Position numbers and translations under genes: made by a program
Virus record (IMG/VR): IMGVR_UViG_3300032285_003360
Location: 37,770 to 101,769 of that record
From: a virus
DNA length: 64,000 nt
Strand: one strand, 5' to 3'
Notes under the pieces: generated by a model
Told to the model about the DNA's origin: nothing
Seen by the model: only the letters and a program-made list of their open reading frames with translations
Database searches by the model: none
Part shown: piece by piece, positions 1 through 43,024 of the stretch
Layout of the letters: each line of letters starts with the position of its first letter
Position numbering within the stretch: the stretch's first letter is position 1

Positions 1-1518
1 ACTTGCAACACAGTGATGCATGAATGCACCCTCTTCAATATACTCCTCTTCTCTTTTTAAAATATATGGGTAGAACGTTTGCTTGATGTTCTTATCGGAT
101 GAAATAAATCTTGATATTGGTTTTTCAACCTCATCTATCATTTTTTGATTAAAGACATATTCAATCACCCAACCCTTCTTCATGGCTGAAATAATCTTAG
201 AAAACTCTTGGTGTTCTTTATTAAAGTCCATAATTGTCCTTGCTCTTATTCTAAATGATTGGTCAACTTCTCTAATTTTATTAACCATATAAACATGGTC
301 AAAAATATCTTTAGATAAATCAGCGTTTATGCCTCTTGGATAAGTCCCATCATTTACACATTTACTGATGTTTTCTTTCTCATCATCATAAAAGTTTAAT
401 ACCGCCATAGCATTTTTAAAATCATCTAATCTTTTTTTGATGTTATGAATACTATCTGGTTCCCGATTACCTTCTTTTTTATATGACGATTTTAATAAAA
501 TTTCATTACTTAAATTACCAATATACTTGGTATAATTTTCACCAAATAAAAAACAAAATTGACCTAACGCATATAAATCTATAAATCGATGGTCATGAAC
601 AATTTTAATTAATATTTTTGATTTACAACCCAATAAATCTAAGACGGATGCGATTAACTTTCTATCATTTTTCTTAAAGAATTTTTCCGTTGGGTAATAA
701 TACTTTAATAAGTGTTCATATTCATCATTTGGTATTTTGATTTTTTTAAGTTCAACAAACGTTTTAACAAGGTGATTGTAAAATGGTGATAAATCGGTAT
801 ACGTAGTGTTTTTAGCATCAAAATTAAATTGTGCTGTGATAAATTTATAAAACTCTTCATCACTTAAACATGTCTCCGTATTTTGCATTTGTGGTAACAC
901 CTTATCCTTTTTCTTATAATATCTTTCTAAATGAAAAATACTACTAGATGTGTTCATTATGTGATTTAACGATAAAAAAGAATTCGTTAAAAAAGTTTGA
1001 GTGGCTTTACGTCCGCGTCCAGGTTTACCAGATGTATTGATTATTATAAAATTCCCTTTAACTAAATCAAATGTTAAAGTAGTCCTACTTGTTGACGTTC
1101 TAAAATACTTAGCGTTATATGGTCTTATTTTAAGATGTTCAGAAATTGTTATTGAGATTTTATCACCGTTTTTTCTAACCTTTCTTTCAATTATTTTAAC
1201 TTGAACATGTGCAAATGGATTGTTGTAATGTCTTTTAATTTGACGGTCCTTAGTTGTTATATAATCTTTGATGGCGATGGGGAAAGCAACATGCTCCATT
1301 GAACCTTCATTTTGAACATAAAAAAAATGCGCGGAAGGTCGTTTATAACTTCCCGATATCTCAATCATTTCTTTATCGTTCCTAGTTATTTGTGAATCAA
1401 ATATGTTTTCCCATGTACGCTCCTTTATATTCTCTTTTTTAGGAGGTATTTGGTTATAATTCTTAACTAACGATATTGATGCGTAGCTAAGTCGTTGGTG
1501 AAATATAGGTGTTTCCAT
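1..1518 (-). CDS. PcfJ-domain-like protein (3'-truncated by window edge; not in ORF track)
   Basis: Hand translation from ATG at 1518 (METPIFHQRLSY...) stays open to position 1 and ends ...REEEYIEEGAFMHHCVAS, matching the PcfJ-like EG.xMxHCV.SY motif. A TATATTTG -7 box lies 4 nt upstream. Confidence 0.7.
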   Translation of the reverse strand, partial: METPIFHQRLSYASISLVKNYNQIPPKKENIKERTWENIFDSQITRNDKEMIEISGSYKRPSAHFFYVQNEGSMEHVAFPIAIKDYITTKDRQIKRHYNNPFAHVQVKIIERKVRKNGDKISITISEHLKIRPYNAKYFRTSTSRTTLTFDLVKGNFIIINTSGKPGRGRKATQTFLTNSFLSLNHIMNTSSSIFHLERYYKKKDKVLPQMQNTETCLSDEEFYKFITAQFNFDAKNTTYTDLSPFYNHLVKTFVELKKIKIPNDEYEHLLKYYYPTEKFFKKNDRKLIASVLDLLGCKSKILIKIVHDHRFIDLYALGQFCFLFGENYTKYIGNLSNEILLKSSYKKEGNREPDSIHNIKKRLDDFKNAMAVLNFYDDEKENISKCVNDGTYPRGINADLSKDIFDHVYMVNKIREVDQSFRIRARTIMDFNKEHQEFSKIISAMKKGWVIEYVFNQKMIDEVEKPISRFISSDKNIKQTFYPYILKREEEYIEEGAFMHHCVAS

Positions 1519-8801: not shown

Positions 8802-9041
8802 ATGGATTTTAAGTTTTTTAAAAGTGAAGAATTAATACACGATAACTTTATTATATTACAACCTACAAATTTTGCACCTGAAAATGCTGAATTTTGTTTT
8901 CAATTTGGTGATGAGGAACCTGTTGTATTTGCTAATGGGCCAAATGAATGTCAAATTCGTATAAGTCCAACACCAGGTGGTAGTATGATATTCAATGATA
9001 ATGGTAAAGTTTTTAAATTATTCGCAAGACCAAGAGTATGA
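8802..9041 (+). CDS. hypothetical protein (paralog of 8553-8801)
   Basis: QFGDEEPVVFA...KVFKLFARP; translationally coupled. Confidence 0.7.
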   Translation: MDFKFFKSEELIHDNFIILQPTNFAPENAEFCFQFGDEEPVVFANGPNECQIRISPTPGGSMIFNDNGKVFKLFARPRV

Positions 9042-9466
9042 TGCACAAGTTTAAATTTTTTGAGGGGTTTCTTGAGAACGTATATGTGTTTGACACCGCT
9101 AATATTGTTGCGAGACATGTTCAGCATGGTGAAAGAACTTTACGTGCAACGTGGAGACCTGAACCAATAGAAGATATCTATTCACATCATGGGATAGATG
9201 CTGAGGCGGAATTAACAAGAATGCTATCAGCACAATGGGCACAAGAGATTGACAATGATATCATTAGACGATTAAGAGAAATCATTGGTGAAGAAAATGA
9301 AACCGATGATGAAGTATTAAGAGGTATTGAAGTTTTAAATGGTAGAGTTGAAGAGAGTGTTGATACAATCAGAAGAGTAACAAGAAGAATAAATGGTGGG
9401 GACGATTTAGCAGATAACGCCGACTATCTTGGTAGATATTTGGATATAGGAGGAGATAGAGCATGA
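9038..9466 (+). CDS. mini-protein containing a T4 gp23-like major capsid protein segment
   Basis: Residues 32-80 (ERTLRATWRPEPIEDIYSHHGIDAEAELTRMLSAQWAQEIDNDIIRRLR) align without gaps to the conserved gp23-family motif R.L[KR]A.[YW]..E..QD....HG.DA[DE]AEL...L......EI. Confidence 0.7.
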   Translation: MMHKFKFFEGFLENVYVFDTANIVARHVQHGERTLRATWRPEPIEDIYSHHGIDAEAELTRMLSAQWAQEIDNDIIRRLREIIGEENETDDEVLRGIEVLNGRVEESVDTIRRVTRRINGGDDLADNADYLGRYLDIGGDRA

Positions 9467-17858: not shown

Positions 17859-18425
17859 CTACTTCCACCACCAACCTTTTCCGTCTAAGGTGGCATAATC
17901 CATAATTAAATTAATCCTATCCTTGTTGCTGCTGTTTCTAACCTCATGTTCAACCAAATCATTTAACTCCCATACTTCACCTATTCTAAAGAATTTATCC
18001 TCGTCTCTAACGTTATAGACAATTTTTTCCTCTTCAGCGATTAGTGCCACATGTATTCTATGTGAAAGGGAATATGAGGGGCCAACGTCGATATGTCTAC
18101 CGACGTTTTTCCCTGCAAATAATTTAACGAACACCGCTCTTGCTATATAACCATCACCATATTCTTTTTTAAGAACTTCCAACAATGGCTTCATTAACTC
18201 TTCCATATTAAGTAAGTCCCAATACTTGTGCTTGGTTCCACCAAAATGTCTAAAGTCTTTGTCATATATCAACTGAATGGCTTGAGTTGAATGGTGAAAT
18301 GATTTATATGATTCTTGTCTAAAAGTATCGGCACCCCAATCAGCGTCATCAATCTTACTAAGAGAGTCAATCATTGGTTGAGGGTCAATCTTACCCAAAT
18401 ACTTAAAGTTAATTCCTATATTCAT
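17859..18425 (-). CDS. aspartyl/asparaginyl beta-hydroxylase-like 2OG-Fe(II) oxygenase (start re-assigned to 18425)
   Basis: HID, HRIHV.L, GEVWELN...HEV.N....R.NLI.D; ATGA overlap with the upstream gene. Confidence 0.82.
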   Translation of the reverse strand: MNIGINFKYLGKIDPQPMIDSLSKIDDADWGADTFRQESYKSFHHSTQAIQLIYDKDFRHFGGTKHKYWDLLNMEELMKPLLEVLKKEYGDGYIARAVFVKLFAGKNVGRHIDVGPSYSLSHRIHVALIAEEEKIVYNVRDEDKFFRIGEVWELNDLVEHEVRNSSNKDRINLIMDYATLDGKGWWWK

Positions 18426-19429
18426 AAAATGGTTATTAATGCGTAGGTTATCATAATAGATATCCAAATTATTAATGCTTTTAAATATGTCATAAATCCT
18501 GTGTGGAAATACTTTTGACCTATTGGTAAACATTTATGTGATGGTGATATCAAATACCCTGCGTATTCTAATGTGAAGAATAAAACAAAGTAATGTAAAC
18601 CAAACACACTTGTCAATAAGCTAACCATACTTGCATACTTTGCTGATGAACCTAACAAGAATGATGACAAGAATGATAACACACAAACAATAAGAATGTA
18701 TTGTGGTTTATTGTATTGTTTAATCACCTCTTCAATTTGAGCTGAATATGAATTAACTAAGTTACCCAATACGATAACTGCAGCTACAATCCATATCAAT
18801 TCCCAATTAATGTATTCAAGTAACTTTTTCCAACTACTTGAATAATATATTAACCATAATGTGAATCCTGTAAAGAATCCAAAGTAATAATCGGTAAAGA
18901 ACACACACATCATGATTGTTACCAAGAATGGAATAACAACTAACATAATGTTCTTGGTATTGATTGGTTCATCTTTAACTTCGATATCAATCTCACTATC
19001 ATCTAACGATATAACGTAGTATGTGATGTATAATGCTGATATTAATAACAATGGCCAAATATATGACATAAACTGAACGTATGTTAATCCCAATACGGCC
19101 ATTGGTATAATCACTGTCTTCTCTAATGGTGACCATAGATAATAATGATGCGTTGCAAGATAATCAATGATACCAAACTTTTTACGTTTCTTGTTGTCAA
19201 CTGGTGCAATACTATTCAACATAGATGCTGAGATTGCAACACGACCCGGTATTGGTAATATACCACCGAATAACGAAACCAAGAAGACAACCATCTTCTT
19301 TGATTTTACTTTTTGCTCTAATAATCTGAAGATGTCCATAAGGTATCCCTTTTCTTTAAGGATACCTGTTACGAACATAATGAATATTAGATAAATTAAG
19401 AACTCTTGTCCTTTATATAATATTTCCAT
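18422..19429 (-). CDS. multi-pass ion-transporter-superfamily permease (DUF401/CitMHS-like)
   Basis: About 9-10 hydrophobic segments; GGILPIPGR..SA, H..Y.WSPL, GY.ISP.H.CL. Confidence 0.7.
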   Translation of the reverse strand: MEILYKGQEFLIYLIFIMFVTGILKEKGYLMDIFRLLEQKVKSKKMVVFLVSLFGGILPIPGRVAISASMLNSIAPVDNKKRKKFGIIDYLATHHYYLWSPLEKTVIIPMAVLGLTYVQFMSYIWPLLLISALYITYYVISLDDSEIDIEVKDEPINTKNIMLVVIPFLVTIMMCVFFTDYYFGFFTGFTLWLIYYSSSWKKLLEYINWELIWIVAAVIVLGNLVNSYSAQIEEVIKQYNKPQYILIVCVLSFLSSFLLGSSAKYASMVSLLTSVFGLHYFVLFFTLEYAGYLISPSHKCLPIGQKYFHTGFMTYLKALIIWISIMITYALITIL

Positions 19430-20365: not shown

Positions 20366-20698
20366 TTATAAAATGTGTTTAAGAATAATTGTTAAAGATA
20401 TTACAATCCATAACGTATTGAAAACGATTAAAGTAGGTAAAGATTTCTTCATACTTGCCCATATCAATAATGATGATGTGCATAAGGTTAAAAAATGTAA
20501 CCACCATATTTCTTTACCAAATACTAAACCAGGAACAATGATTGCAGCTTTAGCCATCCAAGCAGCAAATTCAATTGTGTTGTAGTTTGTCCAATATTCT
20601 TTATCGGTATACATTAAAATTTTATTCCATATCTTTTGGAATCCAATAAAGTAGAACAAAACAAAAATGAAACAAAAATAAACTAATATATTAATCAC
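20366..20698 (-). CDS. small 4-TM membrane protein
   Basis: hydrophobic 110-aa ORF overlapping the halogenase stop. Confidence 0.65.
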   Translation of the reverse strand: MINILVYFCFIFVLFYFIGFQKIWNKILMYTDKEYWTNYNTIEFAAWMAKAAIIVPGLVFGKEIWWLHFLTLCTSSLLIWASMKKSLPTLIVFNTLWIVISLTIILKHIL

Positions 20699-22211
20699 GG
20701 TTGTAAAAATTTTTTAAATAATCATATATGTTAGGGAACAATTCACAAAGTGAATCAGATTCTCTTTTAATCAATTCAATGCGATGTTCACAAAGTTGTT
20801 TATACTTCTCGTGAATTTTCCATTGACAGTTTTTATAAAAACCCATACCCCATAACCATTGGAACCAGTTAACTGCTCCGAAGATTCTGCCTCTAAACAT
20901 GTGTGCAGGTGGTTTATGTTCTAACACTTTAAACTTTTGAATTATCGTATCAGGTAAAAATGTTTTTTCATGAACGTCTCTCCAAAATTGTGTATCTCTT
21001 CTTTGACATAAATAGTAATGCGCAATAATAAAATCACGAATGTCAATCATCATATCGATGTTATCTCTGTTGATTGCATCAATAACTGGTTGACCATATT
21101 TTAATCCACTCTTTTCTAATTCAGTAACAAGTGTAGCCATAATACCTTGGAATGTTGAAATACCAGTTGATTCCATTGGTTCAGCAAATCCACTACTTAA
21201 TCCACACGCAACCACATTCTTAACAGCAACTCTTTCACGTGTTCCAATTCTCATTTTAATTTTCATTACCTCACCATTATATCCATCATGGAACTCTCTA
21301 AATTCTTTTTCAGCATCTTCATCACTGATATGGTTTGATGAATAAACGTAGCCACTTCCAATTCTACTATAGATTGGTGTCTTCCATAACCAACCGCTAT
21401 TCATCGTATATAAACTCGAATAAGGTGTTAATTCTTTTCTCTTATCTTTATATGGAATAGGTGCAACAACTGCTGTGTCGCAAAATAATGAATCTTTGAA
21501 TGATATGAATGGTTCACCCATTACCGCTTCAATTAATGCCGCTCTAAATCCTGAACAATCAATATAGATATCTGCACTATATTTTGATCTATCCATCATT
21601 TTTAATTCCTTAACAAAACCAAACGCATCTAACTTAACTTCTTTTAAATCAGCTTCAACAATCTTAACACCATTTGGTATTGCTACTTTATCTCTCAATA
21701 CGTCAGCAAATTTTCTTGCATCAAAGTTGTAACTATAAAAACTTTCTAACTTAGATAACTTTGGTGAATAAGAAATGTCTTCTTCAAAGTTTGGACAAAT
21801 ATTCATATCAGCCATCTTCGCTGTTAAATGAATGTCATTAATCTTTTTATGGTCGCCTGCGTATTCAGACACCAAGTATTCATGTAAGTTTAAATCATCT
21901 GTAATAAAGTGTCTACTTTCATTCTCAACAAGAACCATGTGTTCACCATCTTCAGACCAATTCATAAACTTACCACCATACTTGTATACCGCATCACATT
22001 CATTCATCCATTCACTTTCTTTTAAACCAAGGAACGACATAAAAGATTGTAAGCTCGCAGTTGAGCTCTCACCAACACCAATGGTTGGGATAAGTTTACT
22101 ATGTATCAAGGTAATGTCTACTTTACCTTTGAACATTTTTGACAATAATGATGCAGTCATCATACCAGCAGTTCCACCGCCTAAGATGACAATTTTTTTA
22201 ACGTCTAACAT
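20691..22211 (-). CDS. flavin-dependent (tryptophan-halogenase/PrnA-like) halogenase
   Basis: GGGTAG, IGVGES, A.YK.G (catalytic Lys position), DCSGF, GWLWKTP (WxWxIP variant), R.GSGYVYS, GF.EPMESTG. Confidence 0.9.
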   Translation of the reverse strand: MLDVKKIVILGGGTAGMMTASLLSKMFKGKVDITLIHSKLIPTIGVGESSTASLQSFMSFLGLKESEWMNECDAVYKYGGKFMNWSEDGEHMVLVENESRHFITDDLNLHEYLVSEYAGDHKKINDIHLTAKMADMNICPNFEEDISYSPKLSKLESFYSYNFDARKFADVLRDKVAIPNGVKIVEADLKEVKLDAFGFVKELKMMDRSKYSADIYIDCSGFRAALIEAVMGEPFISFKDSLFCDTAVVAPIPYKDKRKELTPYSSLYTMNSGWLWKTPIYSRIGSGYVYSSNHISDEDAEKEFREFHDGYNGEVMKIKMRIGTRERVAVKNVVACGLSSGFAEPMESTGISTFQGIMATLVTELEKSGLKYGQPVIDAINRDNIDMMIDIRDFIIAHYYLCQRRDTQFWRDVHEKTFLPDTIIQKFKVLEHKPPAHMFRGRIFGAVNWFQWLWGMGFYKNCQWKIHEKYKQLCEHRIELIKRESDSLCELFPNIYDYLKNFYNRD

Positions 22212-26709: not shown

Positions 26710-29700
26710 TTATATGTCTAATTTACTCTTTAATTCAGATATAATCAAGTTCTGCTCGTTTATTTCTTGTTTCAATTCTTTGATTGCTTCAATGAATACT
26801 GCACTCAATCTACCATAAGAAACACTATCAACTTCACCGTCTTTATTTTTTAAAACAACTTCAGGAATGATTTCATTCATCTCTTCAGCAATAACACCTA
26901 TTTCTTTTAAATCATCTTCTTTTCTTACGTATGTTACACCTCGCATCTGAAGAACTTTATCCAAACCATATTTAACTATTTCAATATCTTTCTTATATCG
27001 TAATGATGAGTTTTCTGTGATAACACCTGAAACAACTAAGTTACCATCTTGGTCTAATGACATTTTAGCAGTGCTCCAGTTTGTGCTTCCATTTTTTGAT
27101 GTGTGGAAATACATTACGTGGTTTTCAGTTGCAGTTGCGGTTCCTCTCCAGTGTCCCGCATATAATCTTAAATCGTTACCATAAGTTCTAACCATACCAT
27201 CATATGTTCCTTGAACACCTAATTCTATCGATGGGTAATTACCACTACCATATACTGTTAATCCTACAGTTCCTGCAGAACCGCCACCGCTTGCTGCTGC
27301 AGTTAATGTTAAGGTCGAGAATGTTACACCATTAGTTGTATTCAAGTTTTGGTTAGCAGAATAACCGGCACCTTGCATTGCATATGATGTGTAGTTAGAT
27401 GAATCTAACACAGTTCTCCATGATGTCCATGTTCCTGAGTTTTTACCTCTAACAGCTAATTGACCTGTTCTGAAATCACCAAATATTTCATGATACCAAG
27501 ATGTGCTATAACCTGCAACATATAAACCACCATCTGTTTGTCCAAACAAAGGAACGTTAGCATTTACATAACCAATCGCATCTAATGTTGGTGGTGAACT
27601 TGCGTCCATAGCAGTTGATGAATAAGCCGCTGTAAAGTTTGATATTGAACCTGCACTTGTTGCGGATGTTGCGGTAGCGGCATTACCACTAATGCTAATA
27701 CCCCAAGTTCCCGATGCGCCACCACCTGTTAATGTTGGTGAATATGAGTTATAGTTACCTGCGTGTAAAACTACGTTGGTTAACCATGTCATAGTAGAAC
27801 CATTATATAATTTTAAACCTTCAGTGTAAACACCATTACCGTCTTTACTACCGATGTCAATGTATCTATTTGCGGTTGCACTATCATATCTAACTTTAAT
27901 TACTGGACCATTTGCGGGACCATCTAAAATTGTATATATTGTTTGGTTAGCATAACCATTTAATTGTGCAGCGTAACCATCTGTATTAACACCTGATAAA
28001 TTTAATGTTGCACTTGCTCTACCTAATGAAATAGATGTTGAACCTAAATAAAAAGATGAGTTTGCTAAGTAACTATTACTAATGGCACTACCATTCCACG
28101 TTCCACTTATAATTGTTCCAACTGTTAAATTACCATTAGACGCCAATGACATTCTATCATAGAATGTACCACCATCATTAAATGTCCAATATAATGTGCT
28201 TGAGTTGTTTGATGCACTACCGTTAGCGTATCTTAAATCAAACATTGCATTATTCGTTCCACCATTAGGATTGATTCTAAAACTCAACGCAGTATAAGCA
28301 TTAGATGTGGTTGCGTTGTTAACTATCGATAAGAATCTATTCCCATCACCCATATCACTATTAGCGGTAAAACCACTACTAACTGTTAATGAAACGGTTG
28401 TTCCTGATGTGGATCTACTCGCACCGCCACCTTGTGTAAATTTACCCGTTACAGATGTTGCACCACTAACTGATAATGTGCTACCATCATATGTTAAACC
28501 GCTGTTACCTTGTATTAAACCTGCAGTTCCTGTTGCTGTAATTACGTAATTCGCGGTGTTATTATTAATTGTTGCGGCACCAGATGTTCCTGATGAACCA
28601 TTAGAACCAGAAGAACCACTTGTTCCCGAAGAGCCTGAGCTTCCTGATGTTCCTGAACTTCCCGATGAACCTGATGAACCAGAAGTTCCTGAACTTCCCG
28701 ATGAACCTGATGAACCAGAAGTTCCTGAACTTCCCGATGAACCTGATGAACCCGATGTTCCGGAGCTACCACTAGTACCAGATGAGCCTGAACTACCCGA
28801 ACTACCTGACGTTCCTGAGCTTCCTGAAGAACCTGATGAACCCGAAGTTCCCGATGACCCGCTTGAACCAGAGCTACCGCTTGTTCCTGATGAACCGCTT
28901 GTCCCACTTGAGCCCGAACTACCCGATGAACCACTTGTACCTGAGGTTCCTGAACTACCACTAGTTCCCGATGAACCCGATGACCCACTTGTTCCAGAAC
29001 TACCACTTGAGCCCGAACTACCCGATGAACCACTTGTACCGGATGTTCCTGAGCTACCACTAGTTCCTGAAGAACCTGATGAACCCGATGACCCACTTGT
29101 TCCAGAACTACCACTTGAACCTGAAGAACCCGAAGTTCCTGAAGTTCCCGATGAGCCACTTGAACCTGATGTTCCTGAGCTACCTGAAGAGCCTGATGAA
29201 CCACTTGTACCAGAAGTTCCTGAAGAACCTGAGCTACCACTAGTTCCCGAAGAACCACTTGAACCACTACTTCCTGAACTACCAGATGTTCCACTTGTTC
29301 CTGAACTACCGCTTGTTCCGGTTGAACCTGAGCTACCGCTTGAGCCTGACGTTCCACTTGTTCCTGAACTACCTGATGATCCACTTGTTCCACTCGTTCC
29401 TGAAGAACCACTAGAACCCGAACTACCTGAAGTGCCACTTGTGCCAGAAGAACCACTTGTTCCGGTGCTTCCGCTTGAACCGGATGTTCCTGAACTACCA
29501 GATGAACCTGAAGAACCCGAAGTTCCACTTGTTCCTGAAGAACCCGAACTTCCTGATGTTCCACTAGTTCCTGATGAACCACTTGTTCCACTTGTACCAG
29601 ATGTTCCGTTTACGATAGGTAATGTTAAAATGTTACCATTTGAATCAAAACCTAATGTACCAATAGTTGTACCAGTAAATTTAGTTGCTGAATTATAATT

Positions 29701-32487
29701 CTGTAATGATAATTGACCTGTTTGTAAATCAATTCCTAAATGTTGCGCATCACTATTATTATTGTTACCTCTTAAAACTCTAAACTTATTTTGATAATTA
29801 TCAAGCATAGCACCTGATGTGTAACCACTAATTCCTGTTCCTTGTAATATTAATTGACCACCCTCACCGTTACCACCTCCAGTTGGAGGTCCGATAATTA
29901 ATGTGTTCTCAGTTGAACCTGTTAGACCATTTATTGATAAACTTCCTGTTACATATGCATTATTTGTTATTTTTAATGAACCTGTAACTTCAGTATTTGT
30001 TAAATGTCTTATGGTTGTTCCATCATCAACGGTATTTGAATCATTTAAATGGAATCCACTAACCATTTTTGGGATTCTATTTGTTGTTAAAGGTGTTTCA
30101 TTACCAAGATTGTTTGCTGTCTCAGGACCCGTAATTAAAATTGATGATGTAATAGGTGAACCTGATTGAAATTGGTGCACGAAAATCCATTCATTATTAA
30201 TAGAATCAAATAACAATGAGCCTGAAACTTGGGGTATAGAACCTGAATCAATGATTTCAATACCACCATATCTTAATATAGGTGCATTCGCATTTAATGT
30301 TAAAATATTATCACCAATTGTTAATTGTGATGATGTGATGTATTGAATTGAAGACGAACCTGCAACTATAAAGTTTTGTGAAACATATAATGAACCAGTT
30401 ACAATTGTATTTCCCGTAATAGTTAATGCGCCACCGCTATAAACTAAATTAGCTGATGCTGTTGCGGCATTTGTTGTCCCATCTGAAAGTAATATACGAC
30501 CGCTCGCTGCTGAATTAATTGTTGAGAATCCTGTTCCACTCGTTCCTGCTGTTCCTGAGCTACCTGAACTACCAGATGTTCCACTAGTTCCTGATGAACC
30601 GCTCGAACCGCTACTACCTGATGTTCCACTCGTTCCTGAACTACCACTTGTTCCACTACTACCCGAAGAACCTGAGCTTCCGGATGAACCACTTGTTCCG
30701 GATGTTCCTGAAGAACCAGAGCTACCTGATGTTCCTGAGCTTCCTGAAGAACCACTAGAACCTGAGCTACCGCTTGTTCCCGCTGTTCCACTTGTCCCTG
30801 ATGAACCACTTGAACCAGAACTTCCTGATGTCCCTGACGAACCACTGCTACCTGAGCTACCACTTGTTCCAGATGTTCCTGAACTTCCACTTGTTCCACT
30901 ACTACCTGAAGACCCACTAGAACCTGATGTTCCCGCAGTTCCACTTGTACCAGAAGAACCCGAGCTTCCGCTTGTTCCAGATGAACCTGATGATCCACTT
31001 GAACCTGACGTGCCACTCGTTCCTGAACTACCCGATGTTCCACTTGTTCCTGATGAACCTGAGCTTCCTGAAGTTCCCGATGTGCCACTTGTTCCTGATG
31101 AACCTGAGCTTCCTGAAGTTCCGCTTGTACCAGACGAACCTGAAGTTCCCGAACTTCCTGAAGAACCGCTTGTACCAGATGTTCCTGAAGAACCACTACT
31201 ACCTGAACTTCCTGATGAACCTGAACTACCTGATGTTCCGCTTGTACCAGAGCTACCACTTGTTCCACTTGTACCAGACGTTCCTGAAGTGCCCGATGTT
31301 CCTGATGAACCTGAACTACCACTTGTTCCACTTGAACCCGAACTTCCAGATGTTCCTGAAGTTCCCGATGAACCTGAACTTCCACTCGTGCCTGATGTTC
31401 CTGATGACCCTGAACTACCTGATGTTCCGCTTGTACCAGAGCTACCACTTGTTCCAGACGTTCCTGAGGTTCCGCTTGAACCTGAAGAACCACTACTACC
31501 TGATGTGCCACTTGTTCCTGAAGAACCTGAACTACCTGATGTTCCACTCGTTCCAGAACTACCGCTTGTGCCTGAAGTTCCCGATGAACCCGAGCTACCT
31601 GATGTACCACTGGTTCCACTTGAACCAGAGCTACCACTTGTTCCACTTGTGCCAGATGAACCACTAGAACCTGAAGAACCTGAGCTACCACTTGTGCCGG
31701 AAGTTCCTGAACTACCACTTGAACCAGATGTTCCTGCGGTTCCGGACGTTCCGCTTGTAGCGGCATTATATGATGTTCCATTGATAACAACATCACCTGT
31801 TACATATAATGAACCTGTAACGTATGTGTCATCATTTATTCTTAAACCGACGCCGTCATAAACTTGTGCGTTTGCTGCGCCGTCAGAAATCTTATTTAAT
31901 TGTAAACCTGTAACTCCACTTGCAGGTATTCCATATAAACCTGCTCCACTACCTGTAAATGAACCTGATATTTGTGCCGCAAGAAATGGTTGAGATATTC
32001 CACCAAATCTTAAATAACTATTTTCCGGGTCTCTTCTAAAAACAATAGCAGTTGCACCCGTTCCTATTTGAAATTCGTTTGCGATAATTTTTTTCAAATT
32101 ACCGTCAATATCTAAAACCTCTATATCACCATCAATGGTTCTGATTATTTTAGTTGCACCAAAATGAATTGCTGAACCTGTTTCTAAAAATAAATCATTC
32201 CATTTAAATTCTGTGGAACCTAAATTATAATCACCATCTAAAGCAGGTATTAATGAACCGCTGAATGTTTGGTCATCCGCAAATACGTTACTTCCTGTTG
32301 TTGCAAATGATTCACGGTCTCTTCCACCTAATAATTTTGAATTTTGGGCTAATGAAGCGGAAATTGCATTTGAGGTAGTTCCGCTGATGGTGGCGTTAAT
32401 AACACCATCAACCGTTAAATCACCCGCAATATGACCATTTCCTTGGACTTCTAACGAACCCGATATACTGGCATCAAATATTTTCAT
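26710..32487 (-). CDS. long tail fibre with Gly-Ser/Thr-Ser triplet repeats and C-terminal peptidase S74 intramolecular chaperone
   Basis: two G-[ST]-S blocks; fibre motifs; SSLRYKKDI...GVIAEE.....PE.V......V.Y..L....IEAIKEL C-terminus. Confidence 0.9.
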   Translation of the reverse strand: MKIFDASISGSLEVQGNGHIAGDLTVDGVINATISGTTSNAISASLAQNSKLLGGRDRESFATTGSNVFADDQTFSGSLIPALDGDYNLGSTEFKWNDLFLETGSAIHFGATKIIRTIDGDIEVLDIDGNLKKIIANEFQIGTGATAIVFRRDPENSYLRFGGISQPFLAAQISGSFTGSGAGLYGIPASGVTGLQLNKISDGAANAQVYDGVGLRINDDTYVTGSLYVTGDVVINGTSYNAATSGTSGTAGTSGSSGSSGTSGTSGSSGSSGSSGSSGTSGTSGSSGSSGTSGTSGSSGSSGTSGTSGSSGTSGTSGSSGSSGTSGTSGSSGSSGSSGTSGTSGTSGSSGTSGTSGSSGSSGTSGTSGSSGSSGTSGTSGSSGSSGTSGSSGSSGTSGTSGTSGTSGTSGSSGTSGTSGSSGSSGSSGSSGSSGTSGTSGSSGSSGTSGSSGTSGTSGSSGSSGTSGTSGTSGSSGSSGTSGTSGSSGTSGTSGSSGSSGSSGTSGSSGSSGTSGTAGTSGSSGSSGSSGTSGSSGTSGTSGSSGSSGSSGTSGSSGSSGSSGTSGTAGTSGSSGSSGSSGSSGTSGSSGSSGTSGTSGSSGSSGSSGSSGTSGSSGTSGTSGSSGSSGSSGTSGTSGSSGSSGTAGTSGTGFSTINSAASGRILLSDGTTNAATASANLVYSGGALTITGNTIVTGSLYVSQNFIVAGSSSIQYITSSQLTIGDNILTLNANAPILRYGGIEIIDSGSIPQVSGSLLFDSINNEWIFVHQFQSGSPITSSILITGPETANNLGNETPLTTNRIPKMVSGFHLNDSNTVDDGTTIRHLTNTEVTGSLKITNNAYVTGSLSINGLTGSTENTLIIGPPTGGGNGEGGQLILQGTGISGYTSGAMLDNYQNKFRVLRGNNNNSDAQHLGIDLQTGQLSLQNYNSATKFTGTTIGTLGFDSNGNILTLPIVNGTSGTSGTSGSSGTSGTSGSSGSSGTSGTSGSSGSSGSSGTSGSSGSTGTSGSSGTSGTSGSSGSSGSSGTSGTSGSSGSSGTSGTSGSSGSSGSTGTSGSSGTSGTSGSSGSSGSSGSSGTSGSSGSSGTSGTSGSSGSSGSSGTSGSSGSSGTSGTSGSSGSSGSSGTSGSSGSSGSSGTSGSSGTSGTSGSSGSSGSSGSSGTSGSSGSSGTSGSSGTSGTSGSSGSSGSSGTSGSSGTSGSSGSSGSSGTSGSSGSSGSSGTSGSSGSSGSSGTSGSSGTSGSSGSSGSSGTSGSSGSSGSSGTSGSSGSSGSSGTSGSSGSSGTSGSSGSNGSSGTSGAATINNNTANYVITATGTAGLIQGNSGLTYDGSTLSVSGATSVTGKFTQGGGASRSTSGTTVSLTVSSGFTANSDMGDGNRFLSIVNNATTSNAYTALSFRINPNGGTNNAMFDLRYANGSASNNSSTLYWTFNDGGTFYDRMSLASNGNLTVGTIISGTWNGSAISNSYLANSSFYLGSTSISLGRASATLNLSGVNTDGYAAQLNGYANQTIYTILDGPANGPVIKVRYDSATANRYIDIGSKDGNGVYTEGLKLYNGSTMTWLTNVVLHAGNYNSYSPTLTGGGASGTWGISISGNAATATSATSAGSISNFTAAYSSTAMDASSPPTLDAIGYVNANVPLFGQTDGGLYVAGYSTSWYHEIFGDFRTGQLAVRGKNSGTWTSWRTVLDSSNYTSYAMQGAGYSANQNLNTTNGVTFSTLTLTAAASGGGSAGTVGLTVYGSGNYPSIELGVQGTYDGMVRTYGNDLRLYAGHWRGTATATENHVMYFHTSKNGSTNWSTAKMSLDQDGNLVVSGVITENSSLRYKKDIEIVKYGLDKVLQMRGVTYVRKEDDLKEIGVIAEEMNEIIPEVVLKNKDGEVDSVSYGRLSAVFIEAIKELKQEINEQNLIISELKSKLDI
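28579..29607 (-). repeat. G-[ST]-S triplet repeat block 2 (about 114 triplets)
   Basis: 9-nt periodic repeat encoding GSS/GTS with varied synonymous codons. Confidence 0.95.
30532..31755 (-). repeat. G-[ST]-S triplet repeat block 1 (about 136 triplets)
   Basis: 9-nt periodic repeat encoding GSS/GTS/GTA. Confidence 0.95.
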
Positions 32488-38021: not shown

Positions 38022-39098
38022 TTAAATGATGGTTTTATTTTTATCTAAAAATTCGTGCATATTATGGAATACCATCTTCTCACCTCTAATTTTATTTAGA
38101 CTAATTAAAAATTGTGTGTGCTCAGGGTGAGATGTGTCCCATACCTTTCTAATCAAATATTCACTTTCACTAAAGCTACCCCAGTTCGCAATCTTACTGA
38201 AAAATATAACACCTCGTTTACCAAAAATATCTCTTATTAAATTAACAAACTCACTCATTTCAAAGTAGTTACCCGATTGAACGACAAATGATGTTCGTAT
38301 AAATCTTAATGTGGGTATTGTTTTAATAAAGTTTAAATTGTTAATCAGGTTTTCCCAATTACCACCAAGCCTTGTAACATTTTCATATGTTTCTTTTGAT
38401 GCCGCATCTATACTGATTTCACAACTTTTAACATAAGGATGTATATTGGACATGCTATCCCACATCTCTTTATTCCACATACTTGCGTTTGTGTGTAGAT
38501 GTATCTTTTTTAACTTGGGGTATTTGTTTGAATCAAATGTTCTTAAGAAATTTCTAAATGAAACGGAAACGAATGGGTCGCCACTACCAGTAATGTAAAG
38601 CGCGGTAATATCCTTTGCATAAGCATCTTCTATTTCACTAATTGTTGATTTAATTTTTTTAATCTCATCGCCACTTGCTGTTATAACATCAATTCTACAT
38701 GATGGACATTTGTAATTACATGTCGCATCAAAAGCGAATTGGACAACACTTGGTCCAACCGTCATTTCACCAGTTTCATAATCATAGTCCTCAATTAATT
38801 CATGAAAATCTTCTTTTAATACCAACGGACCTTTCCTATCGTTTAAATCACCATCTAATAAAGCCGATAGATACGGACAATAGTTTTTGTCACAATATTT
38901 GTAACTACCATCTAATACCGACTTTCTTATTTCTTTGGATTCGGTTGAATTCCAAATTTGTTCAATTGAATGGTCTTCGTGTTTAATTACTTTTGGCATC
39001 CACGTGGGACAACACATATATGAAGATGTTTTGTGTATTTCAATGGTTTTAAATGGTGTCAAACAAACATAATCATTTAAATTAACATCATTTCTCAT
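38022..39098 (-). CDS. radical SAM enzyme with N-terminal SPASM/twitch domain
   Basis: C..PF...CCP.W...C...CP; CNYKCPSC; GSGDPF, LHTN, EISIDA. Confidence 0.9.
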   Translation of the reverse strand: MRNDVNLNDYVCLTPFKTIEIHKTSSYMCCPTWMPKVIKHEDHSIEQIWNSTESKEIRKSVLDGSYKYCDKNYCPYLSALLDGDLNDRKGPLVLKEDFHELIEDYDYETGEMTVGPSVVQFAFDATCNYKCPSCRIDVITASGDEIKKIKSTISEIEDAYAKDITALYITGSGDPFVSVSFRNFLRTFDSNKYPKLKKIHLHTNASMWNKEMWDSMSNIHPYVKSCEISIDAASKETYENVTRLGGNWENLINNLNFIKTIPTLRFIRTSFVVQSGNYFEMSEFVNLIRDIFGKRGVIFFSKIANWGSFSESEYLIRKVWDTSHPEHTQFLISLNKIRGEKMVFHNMHEFLDKNKTII

Positions 39099-39691: not shown

Positions 39692-40455
39692 ATAATCGTT
39701 TTTTTAGTTTGTGGTTCTAACCCTAACATACGAATAAATTCTTCATAAATCAAATGTTGTCTATAAGTTGTGTAATGATCCAAATCCCTTGCTTCTAATG
39801 AACCATCCTTACTCCAATTAATATCATCGTTTCTTAGAAGATAATAATTACACCCTATTTCCGATGCCAAATGTTTTATTGCGGAAATAAATGCAGTATC
39901 GATAAAAGATTGTTGGTCGTTGTTAACTAACGAATCTTCAATCAATGTTCCATATTGAACTTTCCATTCATCTTGATATTCATTGACTTTACAAATTGTT
40001 GGTTTACCGTTAATTATGAATTCGTATCTATAGTAATTTGGGAGGTAATGGAATATGTTTTTAATCTTTAACTCTTTATAATAACCAAGTAATAAACGAT
40101 AATGTGACATCACTCCAGTCCCGCCAATGGATAAGTTCCAAAACTTACCTCCGATTTGGTTGTTTACTTTATATGACCACACGTTTTCAAGATGGTGACC
40201 GACACCAAATGTATATGAACAACCTAAAAACACATTACCCTCATCAACCAAATTAAAATCATCAGGTGACCTGAAACCTTCATTGTTTAATGTGTATTTT
40301 ATTGGGTTTTCTAAATAATATTTTAAACTTTCGTTGTTGGGATATCTCTTTAAATTGGATATGAAATTCTCCTCTTCGTTTTGTGTAATCCAATTGTATG
40401 TTGTGTTAGGTGAATATTTCTCCCAACCGCACCTGTCTTTATAAATGGGAATCAT
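39688..40455 (-). CDS. SGNH/GDSL-like protein
   Basis: N..GFR, FLGCSYTFG.G, NLSIGG, ARDLDH. Confidence 0.65.
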   Translation of the reverse strand: MIPIYKDRCGWEKYSPNTTYNWITQNEEENFISNLKRYPNNESLKYYLENPIKYTLNNEGFRSPDDFNLVDEGNVFLGCSYTFGVGHHLENVWSYKVNNQIGGKFWNLSIGGTGVMSHYRLLLGYYKELKIKNIFHYLPNYYRYEFIINGKPTICKVNEYQDEWKVQYGTLIEDSLVNNDQQSFIDTAFISAIKHLASEIGCNYYLLRNDDINWSKDGSLEARDLDHYTTYRQHLIYEEFIRMLGLEPQTKKTII

Positions 40456-41000
40456 ATAAAACTTTTCTTTGTGATGGGTTTTACATTCTCATTGACAATT
40501 GCGATAATCATTGATTTCCTTTCCCCAGATGTTATTATTTCAACTTCATGTGGTGTTTCAGGTGTTATAGCTAAAAAACTACCAATTTCTTTACTCATTG
40601 GTATTGGTTGGTCGTTAACATAAGATAAGAACTGGCCACCTTCGTAATCTGTTTGATTTGATAATTGAACAATACACACACAAAATCTGTTATGTTCAAA
40701 TGGGTCGGAATCAATATGTTTACTGATAAAATTACCATCATTATATTTGTATATTTCAAATGGTAAAACATCGACATCTATTTTATACCCAAGTTCATTA
40801 AATGATTCGTTAATTTTCTTAAACAATAAATCATCTTTTGTTATTGAAGCATTTGTTACAAAACTATTTCGTTTTTTTAAATTATACCCAACTTCATTGT
40901 TATTTCCCGCTTTAAAATAAGACTGCACGAATTGTCCACCCAATCCTCTTAGATATTGACATTCGGATTCGTCAAATAGTTTTTTCTCAAATAAAATCAT
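40452..41000 (-). CDS. 2OG-Fe(II) oxygenase (PKHD/prolyl-hydroxylase-like)
   Basis: Y..G.F...HID, QLS...YEGG, HEV..I.SG.R.S. Confidence 0.85.
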   Translation of the reverse strand: MILFEKKLFDESECQYLRGLGGQFVQSYFKAGNNNEVGYNLKKRNSFVTNASITKDDLLFKKINESFNELGYKIDVDVLPFEIYKYNDGNFISKHIDSDPFEHNRFCVCIVQLSNQTDYEGGQFLSYVNDQPIPMSKEIGSFLAITPETPHEVEIITSGERKSMIIAIVNENVKPITKKSFI

Positions 41001-41009
41001 AAAATAAAA

Positions 41010-41150
41010 TTATGAATGAGCTGCTTTCAAATATGATATAAAATTCGCAATAGTTTGTGCAACTTTTGCTTTATCGCTTGTTGAAACCGGCTTAACTGTT
41101 CTATTTTTTAAATCTTCTAAATTAACTGATTTATAAACGTTTATAGACAT
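41010..41150 (-). CDS. 46-aa peptide (not in ORF track)
   Basis: MSINVYKSVNLEDLKNRTVKPVSTSDKAKVAQTIANFISYLKAAHS*; fills the gap between the Hint protein and the oxygenase, with an A-rich leader. Confidence 0.7.
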   Translation of the reverse strand: MSINVYKSVNLEDLKNRTVKPVSTSDKAKVAQTIANFISYLKAAHS

Positions 41151-41161
41151 TTTCTTTGATT

Positions 41162-43024
41162 TTAAACTTTGTTATGGACTAATATTCCATTAGCATAGAA
41201 ATTATGGTTATCTTCAACCGAAATGATATATGTTTGAACATCTTCTGTTGGTAATTCCTCTATTGAAGATATTGCTGTTTGACTAACACCATTTGTTACG
41301 TAAACCAAATTACCAACTTGAATTTTATTAATTTCTCTACCTAAATCATATCTCTCAGTTGTTAATTCAGGTGCATATGACGCTAAATTAAAACCATGGG
41401 TATAATATGGGTGGTCAAAAGTAGATGTTACCTCTGTTTGGTTTGAAAATTTATATTTAACCATGTCGTTATGGATTGGTTGTTTTAATCCAATAACTTT
41501 TTTAGGTTCGTTAGTTTTAGTTTCTTCATTAAATGACATAACCTCATCACCAATTACCACATCTTCAATGTTCTTTTGTGTGTTGTCACCCATTGTCACC
41601 TCAGTGCCAGCAGGGAAACAAGCACCACCTCTGATTACGTTGTGAGATACTAATCTAATGATTTTAGAACCACCAACTAAGAAAGTATCCACATCTTCCA
41701 TATTAGGTGAATAAAGCTTCTCAGTTGTTTCTAAAATTTGAATATCAACGCTAACAATCGGAACAAGGTTTCCTGTTGCATCAAAAACAGAATAGTTTGT
41801 TGTTAATATATTACACGGAACATACTTAATTGCGTCATCTGATGCACTATATACTAACAATCTTGTTGCACCACCAATTCTTACAAATTCATCGTCAGGG
41901 AATGTTATTTTGGTTATTTCATTTGCGAATGGTTCCCATTCAAACAAATAAATTAACACAGAAGTTGAGCCACTTGAACCTTCAGGTAATGTGCTCCCTG
42001 AGAAACTCCATGTGTCTAATAAATCATCATCATCCGTGTTTGGTGAACCATTTACAAAATATGATGGATATGAGTCACCTTCAACCATTGTTGATATTGG
42101 TATTTCATTACCATTGATATCTACAACTGTTTCATCAGCTAATAAACCGTGTCTTTCATTTTTGATAATATTTGTTGCAAATTCATAGTAATGTTTAACA
42201 TCTATTTTATTCGCAATTACTGTGTCATCATATTCCACTGAACTTGGCATGTTGAAAACAGCGTCAACTTCATATTCTGCAACATCACAAATATCCAAAT
42301 TAGGACCATAAACAATCTTAAATGATCTTACGGATGTGATTGCGTTATTTGTTAGTTGGTCAGATGAAACATGGTATTGTTCAATAACGTTATCTTGAGT
42401 TGCTGCACTATTTAAAAAATCAGCATATCTATCGCCCGTTGATAATTCGGATTTACCTATTTTATAGAATGGAAATGATTTATGGTCAACCACAACTGGT
42501 TTAATAACCATATCAGGAACATTAGATGGATTCAACGATGTTGTATCTAAAGTATTATATTGACCGTATGTTGTCGATGAGTGATAGAAATTCACAATTG
42601 ATTGGGCATCTCCACTATCTGCGAATAATTTTAAAAGGTTTAAAGTCCCTTTTGCATATTCTGAGTCTAAAATCGCTGTTTCATCGTATGCAAATCTTAA
42701 AATAAACTTGTTTACATCATCTGCAGGGGATTGTGGGAAAATGGAATCACCTGGAACCACAATTGGCTCAATAGTGGTTACAAATGGTGCTGACGCCATT
42801 AAGGTATCAGTTAAATGCTTAACAATGTTAGCATGTAACCCAATTTTGTATATCAAAACCACGTGGTTTATGTTGTTATCGGATAAGATTTGGATAAGAT
42901 TTGTGTAATCGAAAAAATTGGTTACACTACCATATCCTGCAGAAGTGTCGGTATTAATTTCCAATAATCTTAGGTCTCCATTGGAGTCTCTGACGAAATC
43001 GGAAGAAAAGAATGTTCCTTTCAT
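41162..43024 (-). CDS. circularly permuted ATP-grasp-like domain + tandem Hint (intein-like) domains
   Basis: N-term SDF....G.LRLLEINT, VIKP, VIEQY; Hint1 res. 293-462 (GLLADETV...VSHN); Hint2 res. 469-618 (CFPAGTEV..T.DHP..NHNFYANGILVHN). Confidence 0.8.
   Translation of the reverse strand: MKGTFFSSDFVRDSNGDLRLLEINTDTSAGYGSVTNFFDYTNLIQILSDNNINHVVLIYKIGLHANIVKHLTDTLMASAPFVTTIEPIVVPGDSIFPQSPADDVNKFILRFAYDETAILDSEYAKGTLNLLKLFADSGDAQSIVNFYHSSTTYGQYNTLDTTSLNPSNVPDMVIKPVVVDHKSFPFYKIGKSELSTGDRYADFLNSAATQDNVIEQYHVSSDQLTNNAITSVRSFKIVYGPNLDICDVAEYEVDAVFNMPSSVEYDDTVIANKIDVKHYYEFATNIIKNERHGLLADETVVDINGNEIPISTMVEGDSYPSYFVNGSPNTDDDDLLDTWSFSGSTLPEGSSGSTSVLIYLFEWEPFANEITKITFPDDEFVRIGGATRLLVYSASDDAIKYVPCNILTTNYSVFDATGNLVPIVSVDIQILETTEKLYSPNMEDVDTFLVGGSKIIRLVSHNVIRGGACFPAGTEVTMGDNTQKNIEDVVIGDEVMSFNEETKTNEPKKVIGLKQPIHNDMVKYKFSNQTEVTSTFDHPYYTHGFNLASYAPELTTERYDLGREINKIQVGNLVYVTNGVSQTAISSIEELPTEDVQTYIISVEDNHNFYANGILVHNKV

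Follow-up and report, generated by a model that had tools for sequence, protein, structure and literature searches.

A virus-specific family of permuted ATP-grasp proteins fused to a nucleophile-less Hint domain, with a probably mobile mini-Hint in the C-terminal tail

The stretch of viral DNA analyzed here, which we call the window, comprises 64,000 nucleotides and corresponds to positions 37,770 to 101,769 of the IMG/VR virus record IMGVR_UViG_3300032285_003360, a record of 101,769 nt with a G+C content of about 31% and an estimated completeness of 31%. We studied one gene on its complementary strand, at 41162..43024, whose open reading frame (ORF) of 620 amino acids encodes, in order, an ATP-grasp domain (residues 1–292; 42149..43024), a first Hint domain, Hint1 (residues 293–462; 41639..42148), a variable linker of six residues, VIRGGA (residues 463–468; 41621..41638), a second Hint domain, Hint2 (residues 469–618; 41171..41620), and the residues Lys619-Val620 followed by the stop codon (41162..41170). 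Twelve nucleotides after this stop codon, on the same strand, begins an ORF of 46 amino acids (41010..41150), which we call the partner, and beyond it lies a gene for a 2-oxoglutarate (2OG)-Fe(II) oxygenase (40452..41000; Pfam PF13640, phrog_61). By sequence alone, the recognizable portion of the 620-residue protein was limited to its C-terminal 150 residues. The original prediction for this gene, which was made from the sequence, held that the two Hint domains excise VIRGGA as an activated, ubiquitin-like hexapeptide.

Relatives of the ORF were collected with its N-terminal 468 residues as the query. More than 568 proteins were found at 90% clustering, and clustering at 50% identity reduced them to 248 clusters, each with a representative; the family is common in large aquatic phages. 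The Atlas clusters of the family are 96–100% viral, and a search of 185,579 prokaryote species genomes yielded a single match, on a 2.8-kb contig binned with a Cyanobium metagenome-assembled genome (MAG). The family is essentially virus-only. The one contig (CAYNGR010000277.1, 2811 nt, from an uncultured Cyanobium MAG) is probably phage DNA and gives a weak hint of picocyanobacterial hosts for some family members. The DNA of the ORF had zero matches among 50,697 phage records, and a protein search of the same records returned only inteins in helicase and terminase genes, matched through Hint2. A description of the family was not found in the literature on phage ATP-grasp and Hint proteins or on tandem Hints, and the combination of an ATP-grasp domain with a Hint domain was absent from the literature and the family libraries searched. 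The catalytic-type residues named below are conserved across 97–121 sequences, down to about 25–30% identity.

The AlphaFold2 model of residues 1–292, built from a 110-sequence alignment, had a predicted local distance difference test (pLDDT) score of 96, and Foldseek returned circularly permuted ATP-grasp enzymes as the best matches with a probability of 1.0. In VIA-align comparisons, the Z value was 10.0 for yeast glutathione synthetase, 9.7 for YgiC, 9.1 for YjfC and 8.6 for GspS, with 196–232 residues aligned over positions 1..288; unrelated rows stayed at a Z of 5.7 or less, and D-Ala-D-Ala ligases reached only 5 (graspetide ligases were not compared directly). The model, the fold search and the structural alignments all confirmed the permuted strand order. 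Because the best folds are permuted ATP-grasp enzymes, the glutathionylspermidine-synthase-like order that had been proposed from motifs was right. The Glu22-x-Asn24 motif precedes Lys175-Pro176, an order that by motif pattern would match that of glutathione synthetase (eukaryotic GshB), GspS and YgiC/YjfC, in which the Mg-binding E-x-N comes before the K-P strand. Near-invariant positions of the domain are Asp9, Glu22, Asn24, Arg110, Tyr113, Asp120, Ser121, Lys175 and Arg233, of which Glu22, Asn24, Lys175, Arg110 and Arg233 were assigned nucleotide- or Mg-binding roles from the motif pattern only. The phage domain shares the fold with these enzymes over about 200–230 residues, but it is only about 10–13% identical to them, has no Pfam match and carries a Hint domain fused to its C-terminus. 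These nearest structural relatives couple the C-terminal carboxylate of a peptide substrate to an amine. YgiC and YjfC, for example, are given as peptide-spermidine ligases in work cited in PMC12568646. The conserved fold and the intact-looking active site suggest that the phage domain is a GspS/YgiC-class carboxylate-amine ligase.

The results for residues 293–462 agreed with the assignment of this region to the Hint fold. The AlphaFold2 model of residues 286–468 had a pLDDT of 89, and Foldseek matched it to bacterial intein-like (BIL) domains, inteins and Hedgehog proteins with E values from 8e-9 to 1e-4; these matches were the Tetrahymena BUBL BIL2 (6y75, E 8e-9), the BIL domain of C. thermocellum, the Prp8 intein and the Hedgehog HhC domain. 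Comparison with the C. thermocellum BIL domain (2lwy) gave a template modeling (TM) score of 0.88 by target and a root-mean-square deviation of 2.5. A profile comparison between Hint1 and Hint2 with hhalign covered 145 columns end to end and paired Gly293 with Cys469 and the two His-Asn pairs with each other (E 1e-4); by itself this comparison is suggestive (probability 57%), and it was the fold search that decided the assignment. The two domains share 16% identity.

The Hint motifs are retained unevenly in Hint1, in the pattern that had been proposed for it. The block A nucleophile is missing, and Gly293 takes its place in all of the 121 homologues; the block B Thr-x-x-His (TxxH) has no counterpart, neither Thr nor His being conserved at the aligned position; the block G His-Asn is present, with His461-Asn462 in all 121 homologues and in nearly all representatives. 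Gly293 and His-Asn together are kept in nearly all of about 150 representatives at 25–50% identity, and His-Asn is the sole Hint feature kept in every subfamily, even in distant ones in which position 1 is not Gly. Hint1 also has conserved Glu443 and Asp446 and a conserved insert of its own, marked by Pro328, Thr330, Asp331, Trp339, Gly343 and Pro347. Class 2 inteins likewise have no N-terminal nucleophile and keep the terminal His-Asn (PMC7664689); in M. jannaschii KlbA (PDB 2jmz), Ala1 stands where Hint1 has Gly1. However, class 2 inteins keep block B and require a +1 Cys that attacks the N-terminal junction, whereas Hint1 has no TxxH and is a fixed protein domain rather than a sporadic insertion. 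We rejected class 2 for Hint1: the residue after its His-Asn is Cys in only 21 of the 121 homologues, the others including Leu in 67, Ala in 15 and Val in 10, and it is Val463 in the present protein.

Hint2 gave sub-threshold Pfam matches to Hint and intein families, Pretoxin-HINT (PF07591) among them, and phrog_21587 matched the Hint2 region only. In a phmmer search of the PDB, the best matches were 6tmm and 6y75, which are BIL2 of the Tetrahymena BUBL1 locus (E 3e-8), and phage inteins were also 30–34% identical. As originally predicted, three residues or motifs of class 1 inteins are all present: Cys1, TxxH (Thr535 and His538) and the terminal His617-Asn618. Cys469 and Phe470 are invariant in 121 of 121 homologues, and Thr535, His538, His617, Asn618 and Lys619 are nearly so. 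The +1 nucleophile (Cys, Ser or Thr) is missing after Hint2, where the protein has Lys619 and nearly all family members have Lys or Arg. BIL domains have no +1 nucleophile and give mainly cleaved products, by N- and C-cleavage (PMC7664689, PMC7765530), and Cys1 with His-Asn but without a +1 nucleophile defines the A type (PMC7765530, PMC7664689). By these residues Hint2 would be an A-type BIL-like mini-Hint. It shares Cys1, TxxH, His-Asn and the non-nucleophilic +1 residue with the A-type BIL domains of known structure (2lwy; 6y75/6tmm), and BIL domains are both the best sequence match to Hint2 (6y75/6tmm) and the best fold matches to Hint1. The setting is different, since those BIL domains belong to a secreted protein of bacteria or to a locus of the polyubiquitin-like type, whereas in the phage family an enzyme with a degenerate Hint bears a stack of one to three copies, with a conserved Lys or Arg at +1. 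Unlike Tetrahymena BUBL1, the phage ORF has no ubiquitin-like domain upstream.

Hint2 belongs to a set of extra Hint domains that vary in number behind the core formed by the ATP-grasp domain and Hint1. Family members carry 0, 1, 2 or 3 extra Hints, with lengths of about 470, 620, 750 and 905–935 amino acids, respectively, and Cys1, TxxH and His-Asn are kept in essentially all of these domains. A core tree with 128 tips requires a minimum of 31 changes in the count of extra Hints, compared with about 60 after shuffling. The identity of Hint2 to that of P0001 is uncoupled from the identity of the core (r = 0.23); for example, core identities of 63/49% go with a Hint2 identity of 26%, and core identities of 55/39% with Hint2 identities of 64–69%. 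Recent tandem duplication of the Hints was rejected, because the nearest relative of an extra Hint lies in its own protein in 0 of 79 cases. In the junction classes listed for 268 family proteins, a terminal extra Hint is followed by Lys in 178 and by Arg in 5; the last Hint almost always precedes Lys, and internal Hints precede Lys or Arg.

Homologues keep the combination of a Gly1 Hint1 without TxxH and a Cys1 Hint2 but differ in the intervening peptide, as the original prediction anticipated; the variation, however, does not support a selected hexapeptide. In the 121 close homologues the linker has 0, 3, 4, 5, 6 or 7 residues. It is absent, with His-Asn directly followed by Cys-Phe, in 21 of them, and it is absent in 15 representatives; over all representatives its length ranges from 0 to 14. 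Cys1 is usually preceded by Ser or Gly, and only three of the 121 linkers contain RGG. In the phmmer search, IRGGA aligned with LRGGA, the sequence in front of BIL2 in Tetrahymena BUBL, and this likeness is confined to the nearest relatives of the window's protein. In BUBL-type proteins a beta-grasp domain ending in RGG stands before the BIL domain; here the upstream domain is a Hint fold, and for this reason and for the rarity of RGG the ubiquitin-like reading of the motif was rejected.

Comparison of proteins with and without an extra Hint accounts for the linker in another way. Core-only forms of about 470 residues end in a tail of 1–10 residues in which Lys is always present, and the linker corresponds to the front of this tail. 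The protein P0127 ends in HN-PAPPPKL, whereas a relative with 66% core identity to it reads HN-AP, an extra Hint, and then RGIPKL; P0167 ends in HN-YKLKPQF and P0180 in HN-AKS, a Hint and KPQY; and P0147 ends in HN-ILAGKV, to be compared with VIRGGA, Hint2 and KV in the window. A search for loci of the Hint-less P0127 returned Hint-bearing relatives only, at 56–67% identity, which served in this comparison. Every architecture ends with Lys at or near the C-terminus, from HN-K in the shortest form, through a Hint ending in HN-K, to tails rich in Cys that end in Lys or in Lys plus one to three residues. The variability of the linker, its match to the tails of Hint-less relatives and the decoupling of Hint number and identity from the core argue together that VIRGGA is best read as the upstream half of a tail, VIRGGA-KV, that a mobile BIL-like Hint has split; Lys619-Val620, with its conserved basic +1 residue, would be the downstream half.

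The partner is the second constant element of these loci. It lies directly downstream of the main gene in 70 of 80 related IMG/VR loci, and Tyr6, Lys7 and the penultimate His are near-invariant, the C-terminus having the form NFIxYxKxKH-x. It is conserved at both ends and shows no recognizable leader and core layout; it had no PHROG family and no relative or feature match in Atlas, and PHROGs had no family for Hint1 either. In a distant subfamily (25–29% identity), a Cys-rich segment and a Peptidase_S74 domain replace the extra Hints. The Cys-rich segments have 66–107 residues and 6–12 Cys, always an even number, with a median identity of 26% compared with 48% for the core. This subfamily retains the invariant His-Asn, and the partner lies 2–48 nt downstream in 19 of 19 loci. 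Since the partner and His-Asn are kept even here, the fixed unit consists of the ATP-grasp domain, the Hint with its His-Asn and the partner, and the part after His-Asn is free to vary. The partner is probably the best candidate for the substrate or a subunit of the core. The proteins of the S74 subfamily (L087–L105; for example L087:6001-7986 and L097:2023-3963) have a common layout, in which a core ending in His-Asn is followed by a conserved Y-D-Y-D-C, the Cys-rich segment and the Peptidase_S74 domain, so that the Cys-rich piece, which resembles a disulfide-rich exposed module, lies between two predicted self-cleavage sites. Their third gene, after the partner and about 170–200 nt past the main gene, encodes a conserved protein of 94–108 residues with a CxxC...CxxCGC pattern (L087:8160-8486) and is not a 2OG oxygenase.

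We propose, with a probability of roughly 60%, that the gene encodes a virus-specific core of a permuted ATP-grasp domain and a Gly1 Hint, linked to a partner and bearing a mobile mini-Hint in its tail, and that VIRGGA is part of that tail. This proposal draws on the two folds, the residue conservation, the variable number of Hints, the logic of the insertion site and the linkage to the partner. In this scheme the degenerate Gly1 Hint is permanently fused to the ATP-grasp domain as a fixed core; the core would end in a short tail containing Lys, and the A-type-BIL-like mini-Hint would have inserted there, with Lys at its +1 position. After translation, Hint2 would remove itself through an N–S acyl shift at Ala468-Cys469 and cyclization of Asn618. 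Because the +1 nucleophile is missing, the outcome would be mainly cleavage, or possibly an amine-mediated religation of Lys-Val; A-type BIL domains can reportedly religate their flanks through the freed alpha-amine. The core would be left with a short tail and would resemble its relatives without an extra Hint, and VIRGGA would be at most an incidental by-product, if Asn462 cyclizes too. The core most likely acts on or with the 46-residue partner. Hint1 was presumably retained because of its His-Asn, the simplest uses of which would be to cleave C-terminally or to hold the tail.

Several observations weigh against this proposal. Pfam searches (E up to 1) and PHROGs gave no ATP-grasp or GSP_synth family for the N-terminal domain, and the suggested ligase activity is read from the fold and the motif conservation only. 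The VIA-align match begins about 95–120 residues into the structural relatives, so that their N-terminal, substrate-binding part is missing here; Hint1 may substitute for this module. Residues 460–468, which include the His-Asn, had a pLDDT below 50 in the isolated model of Hint1, and the scheme does not account for the invariance of this His-Asn if the protein just keeps its tail. The basic +1 residue after the extra Hints is conserved beyond the need of a purely selfish element, which hints at a further function. The mini-Hint contains no homing endonuclease, and the scheme has to assume that Hints are exchanged when co-infecting phages recombine.

The excision originally proposed, in which cyclization of Asn462 and the N–S shift at Cys469 release a ubiquitin-like VIRGGA thioester with a free N-terminus for ligation, cyclization or tagging, draws on a chemistry established for Hint domains (PMC7664689), on the invariance of both reactive ends (His461-Asn462 and Cys469) and on the alignment of IRGGA with the LRGGA before the BUBL BIL2. 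A peptide selected for such a purpose is hard to reconcile with a linker that is missing in some homologues, varies from 0 to 14 residues, rarely contains RGG and corresponds to the first part of the tail that Hint2-less relatives carry. The upstream domain is a Hint with no beta-grasp fold, and whole subfamilies without a Cys1 Hint, both the forms of about 470 residues and those with Cys-rich and S74 modules, exist and retain the core and the partner gene. We therefore consider this excision very improbable. A decaying, duplicated intein without present function would explain why Hint1 has lost Cys1 and TxxH, but Gly293 and His-Asn are invariant, Hint1 has a conserved insert of its own and the two Hints share only 16% identity. 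Random loss of the His-Asn and Cys residues, which the original prediction named as the mark of such decay, did not occur; the domains are thus no decayed duplication, and the chance that this account is correct is practically negligible.

Two further explanations assign the cleavage a purpose. The Gly1 Hint could be a release device that cleaves C-terminally at its His-Asn and so frees or sheds the downstream piece, here VIRGGA-Hint2-KV and elsewhere a short tail, Cys-rich modules, an S74 chaperone domain or extra Hints. The His-Asn is kept in every subfamily, the downstream cargo can be hypervariable, as in the Cys-rich segments with their even Cys counts and low identity relative to the core, and the same place in the protein is taken by self-cleaving modules of two unrelated kinds, Hint in some forms and Peptidase_S74 in others. 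A comparable role in setting free variable toxin domains at the C-terminus has been suggested for the Pretoxin-HINT domains (PF07591) of polymorphic toxins, which likewise separate a conserved N-terminal part from C-terminal modules that are hypervariable; the phage proteins differ in that their cargo is a short tail, more Hints or a Cys-rich segment with S74, with no toxin domain, and in that their N-terminal part is an enzyme. In the shortest forms, however, the cargo is a single Lys or 4–8 residues, with no obvious use, the block-B His is missing, and the His-Asn region is modeled with low confidence. A release device is a minor possibility and is compatible with the proposal of a fixed core with a mobile mini-Hint. 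Alternatively, the Cys1 thioester of the extra Hint may be resolved, as in Hedgehog proteins, not by water but by a specific nucleophile that is thereby attached to the core through its tail; this nucleophile might come from the partner (Lys7 or its N-terminus), from a virion protein or from a small molecule. This would suit the Cys1, TxxH and His-Asn of the extra Hints, the small residues (Ser, Gly) favored at –1, the conserved Tyr-Lys of the partner and the presence of HhC among the fold matches. Like the Hedgehog autoprocessing domain (1at0/6tyy), a fold match, the extra Hint is C-terminal and has a Cys1 whose thioester could process the upstream domain, but the phage protein lacks a sterol-recognition region or similar adduct domain, having only Lys after the Hint, and retains the terminal His-Asn. 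The number of extra Hints also changes often, and the partner is kept in Hint-less and S74-tailed forms, so its role cannot depend on the thioester; such a transfer is unlikely.

The neighboring genes suggest that the locus might instead be a cluster for a ribosomally synthesized and post-translationally modified peptide (RiPP), in which the 46-residue ORF is the precursor for the ATP-grasp enzyme, radical SAM enzymes and 2OG oxygenases, and the Hints are incidental. A small conserved ORF does adjoin the ATP-grasp gene, and radical SAM genes occur in 45 and 2OG oxygenase genes in 58 of the 80 loci. The best fold matches, on the other hand, are of the GshB and GspS class rather than RimK-type graspetide ligases, radical SAM genes are absent from the 19 S74 loci that keep the partner, and the partner is conserved at its two ends without a leader and core layout. 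We regard a RiPP-like cluster as distinctly unlikely. A further possibility is a virus-specific system for ligating proteins or peptides, composed of the ATP-grasp domain, the Gly1 Hint and the partner, whose substrate end would be made by Hint chemistry: cyclization of Asn462 would shed the variable C-terminal module and leave a defined or activated C-terminus, the GspS-class ligase would join a peptide carboxylate to an amine, such as that of the partner's Tyr-Lys, and in the S74 subfamily the same cleavage would free hypervariable disulfide-rich modules. It is tentative and, in our judgment, unlikely.

The genes around the main gene and the partner form a same-strand island. The 2OG oxygenase is the commonest third gene of the module, often 150–170 nt after the main gene, and a homologue occurs in 9 of the 19 loci of the S74 subfamily. 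The radical SAM genes (radical SAM/SPASM) lie in the same-strand island, and together with the carbamoyltransferase they recur in the window's own subfamily only. Among the neighbors named in the original prediction, the radical SAM, 2OG oxygenase and carbamoyltransferase genes were confirmed and frequently occur together, whereas the sulfotransferase at 39095 was unconfirmed by Pfam and PHROGs. No terminator-like sites were found around the main gene, and promoter-like sites showed no enrichment. At 26710-32487 on the complementary strand, the window encodes a collagen-repeat protein of 1925 amino acids that ends in a Peptidase_S74 domain and is probably a long fiber; its gene shares the same-strand island with glycosyltransferases, an FkbM methyltransferase, 2OG oxygenases and radical SAM genes, whose products may modify the fiber.

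Other genes of the window were noted in passing. A 142-residue ORF on the given strand (9038-9466) matches only positions 141–198 of the T4 Gp23 profile (40 bits, above the cut-off); it is a short fragment that resembles Gp23 and does not amount to a capsid gene. On the complementary strand, the thymidylate synthase at 1738-2877 has 379 residues, of which 6–378 span a Pfam profile of 266 positions, which implies an insertion of about 100 residues; 20691-22211 encodes a full-length tryptophan halogenase family protein (E 2e-111) and 18422-19429 a DUF401/CitMHS-like membrane transporter.

Each domain type in this family, the ATP-grasp ligase, the BIL or intein-like Hint and Peptidase_S74, was already known. 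What the literature and family libraries searched did not contain is the permanent fusion of a ligase-like domain to a Hint domain that has lost its nucleophile and kept its His-Asn, with 0–3 exchangeable Hints in the tail and a partner of about 46 residues. The compact, stacked modules, with predicted self-cleavage and Lys or Arg at +1, have a possible use in protein engineering. The alleles with and without the insertion constitute a natural series for studying how mini-Hints spread without an endonuclease. The phage island that the enzyme and its partner head also encodes glycosyl- and carbamoyl-transferases, oxygenases and radical SAM enzymes, and it probably modifies components of the virion or of the host surface.

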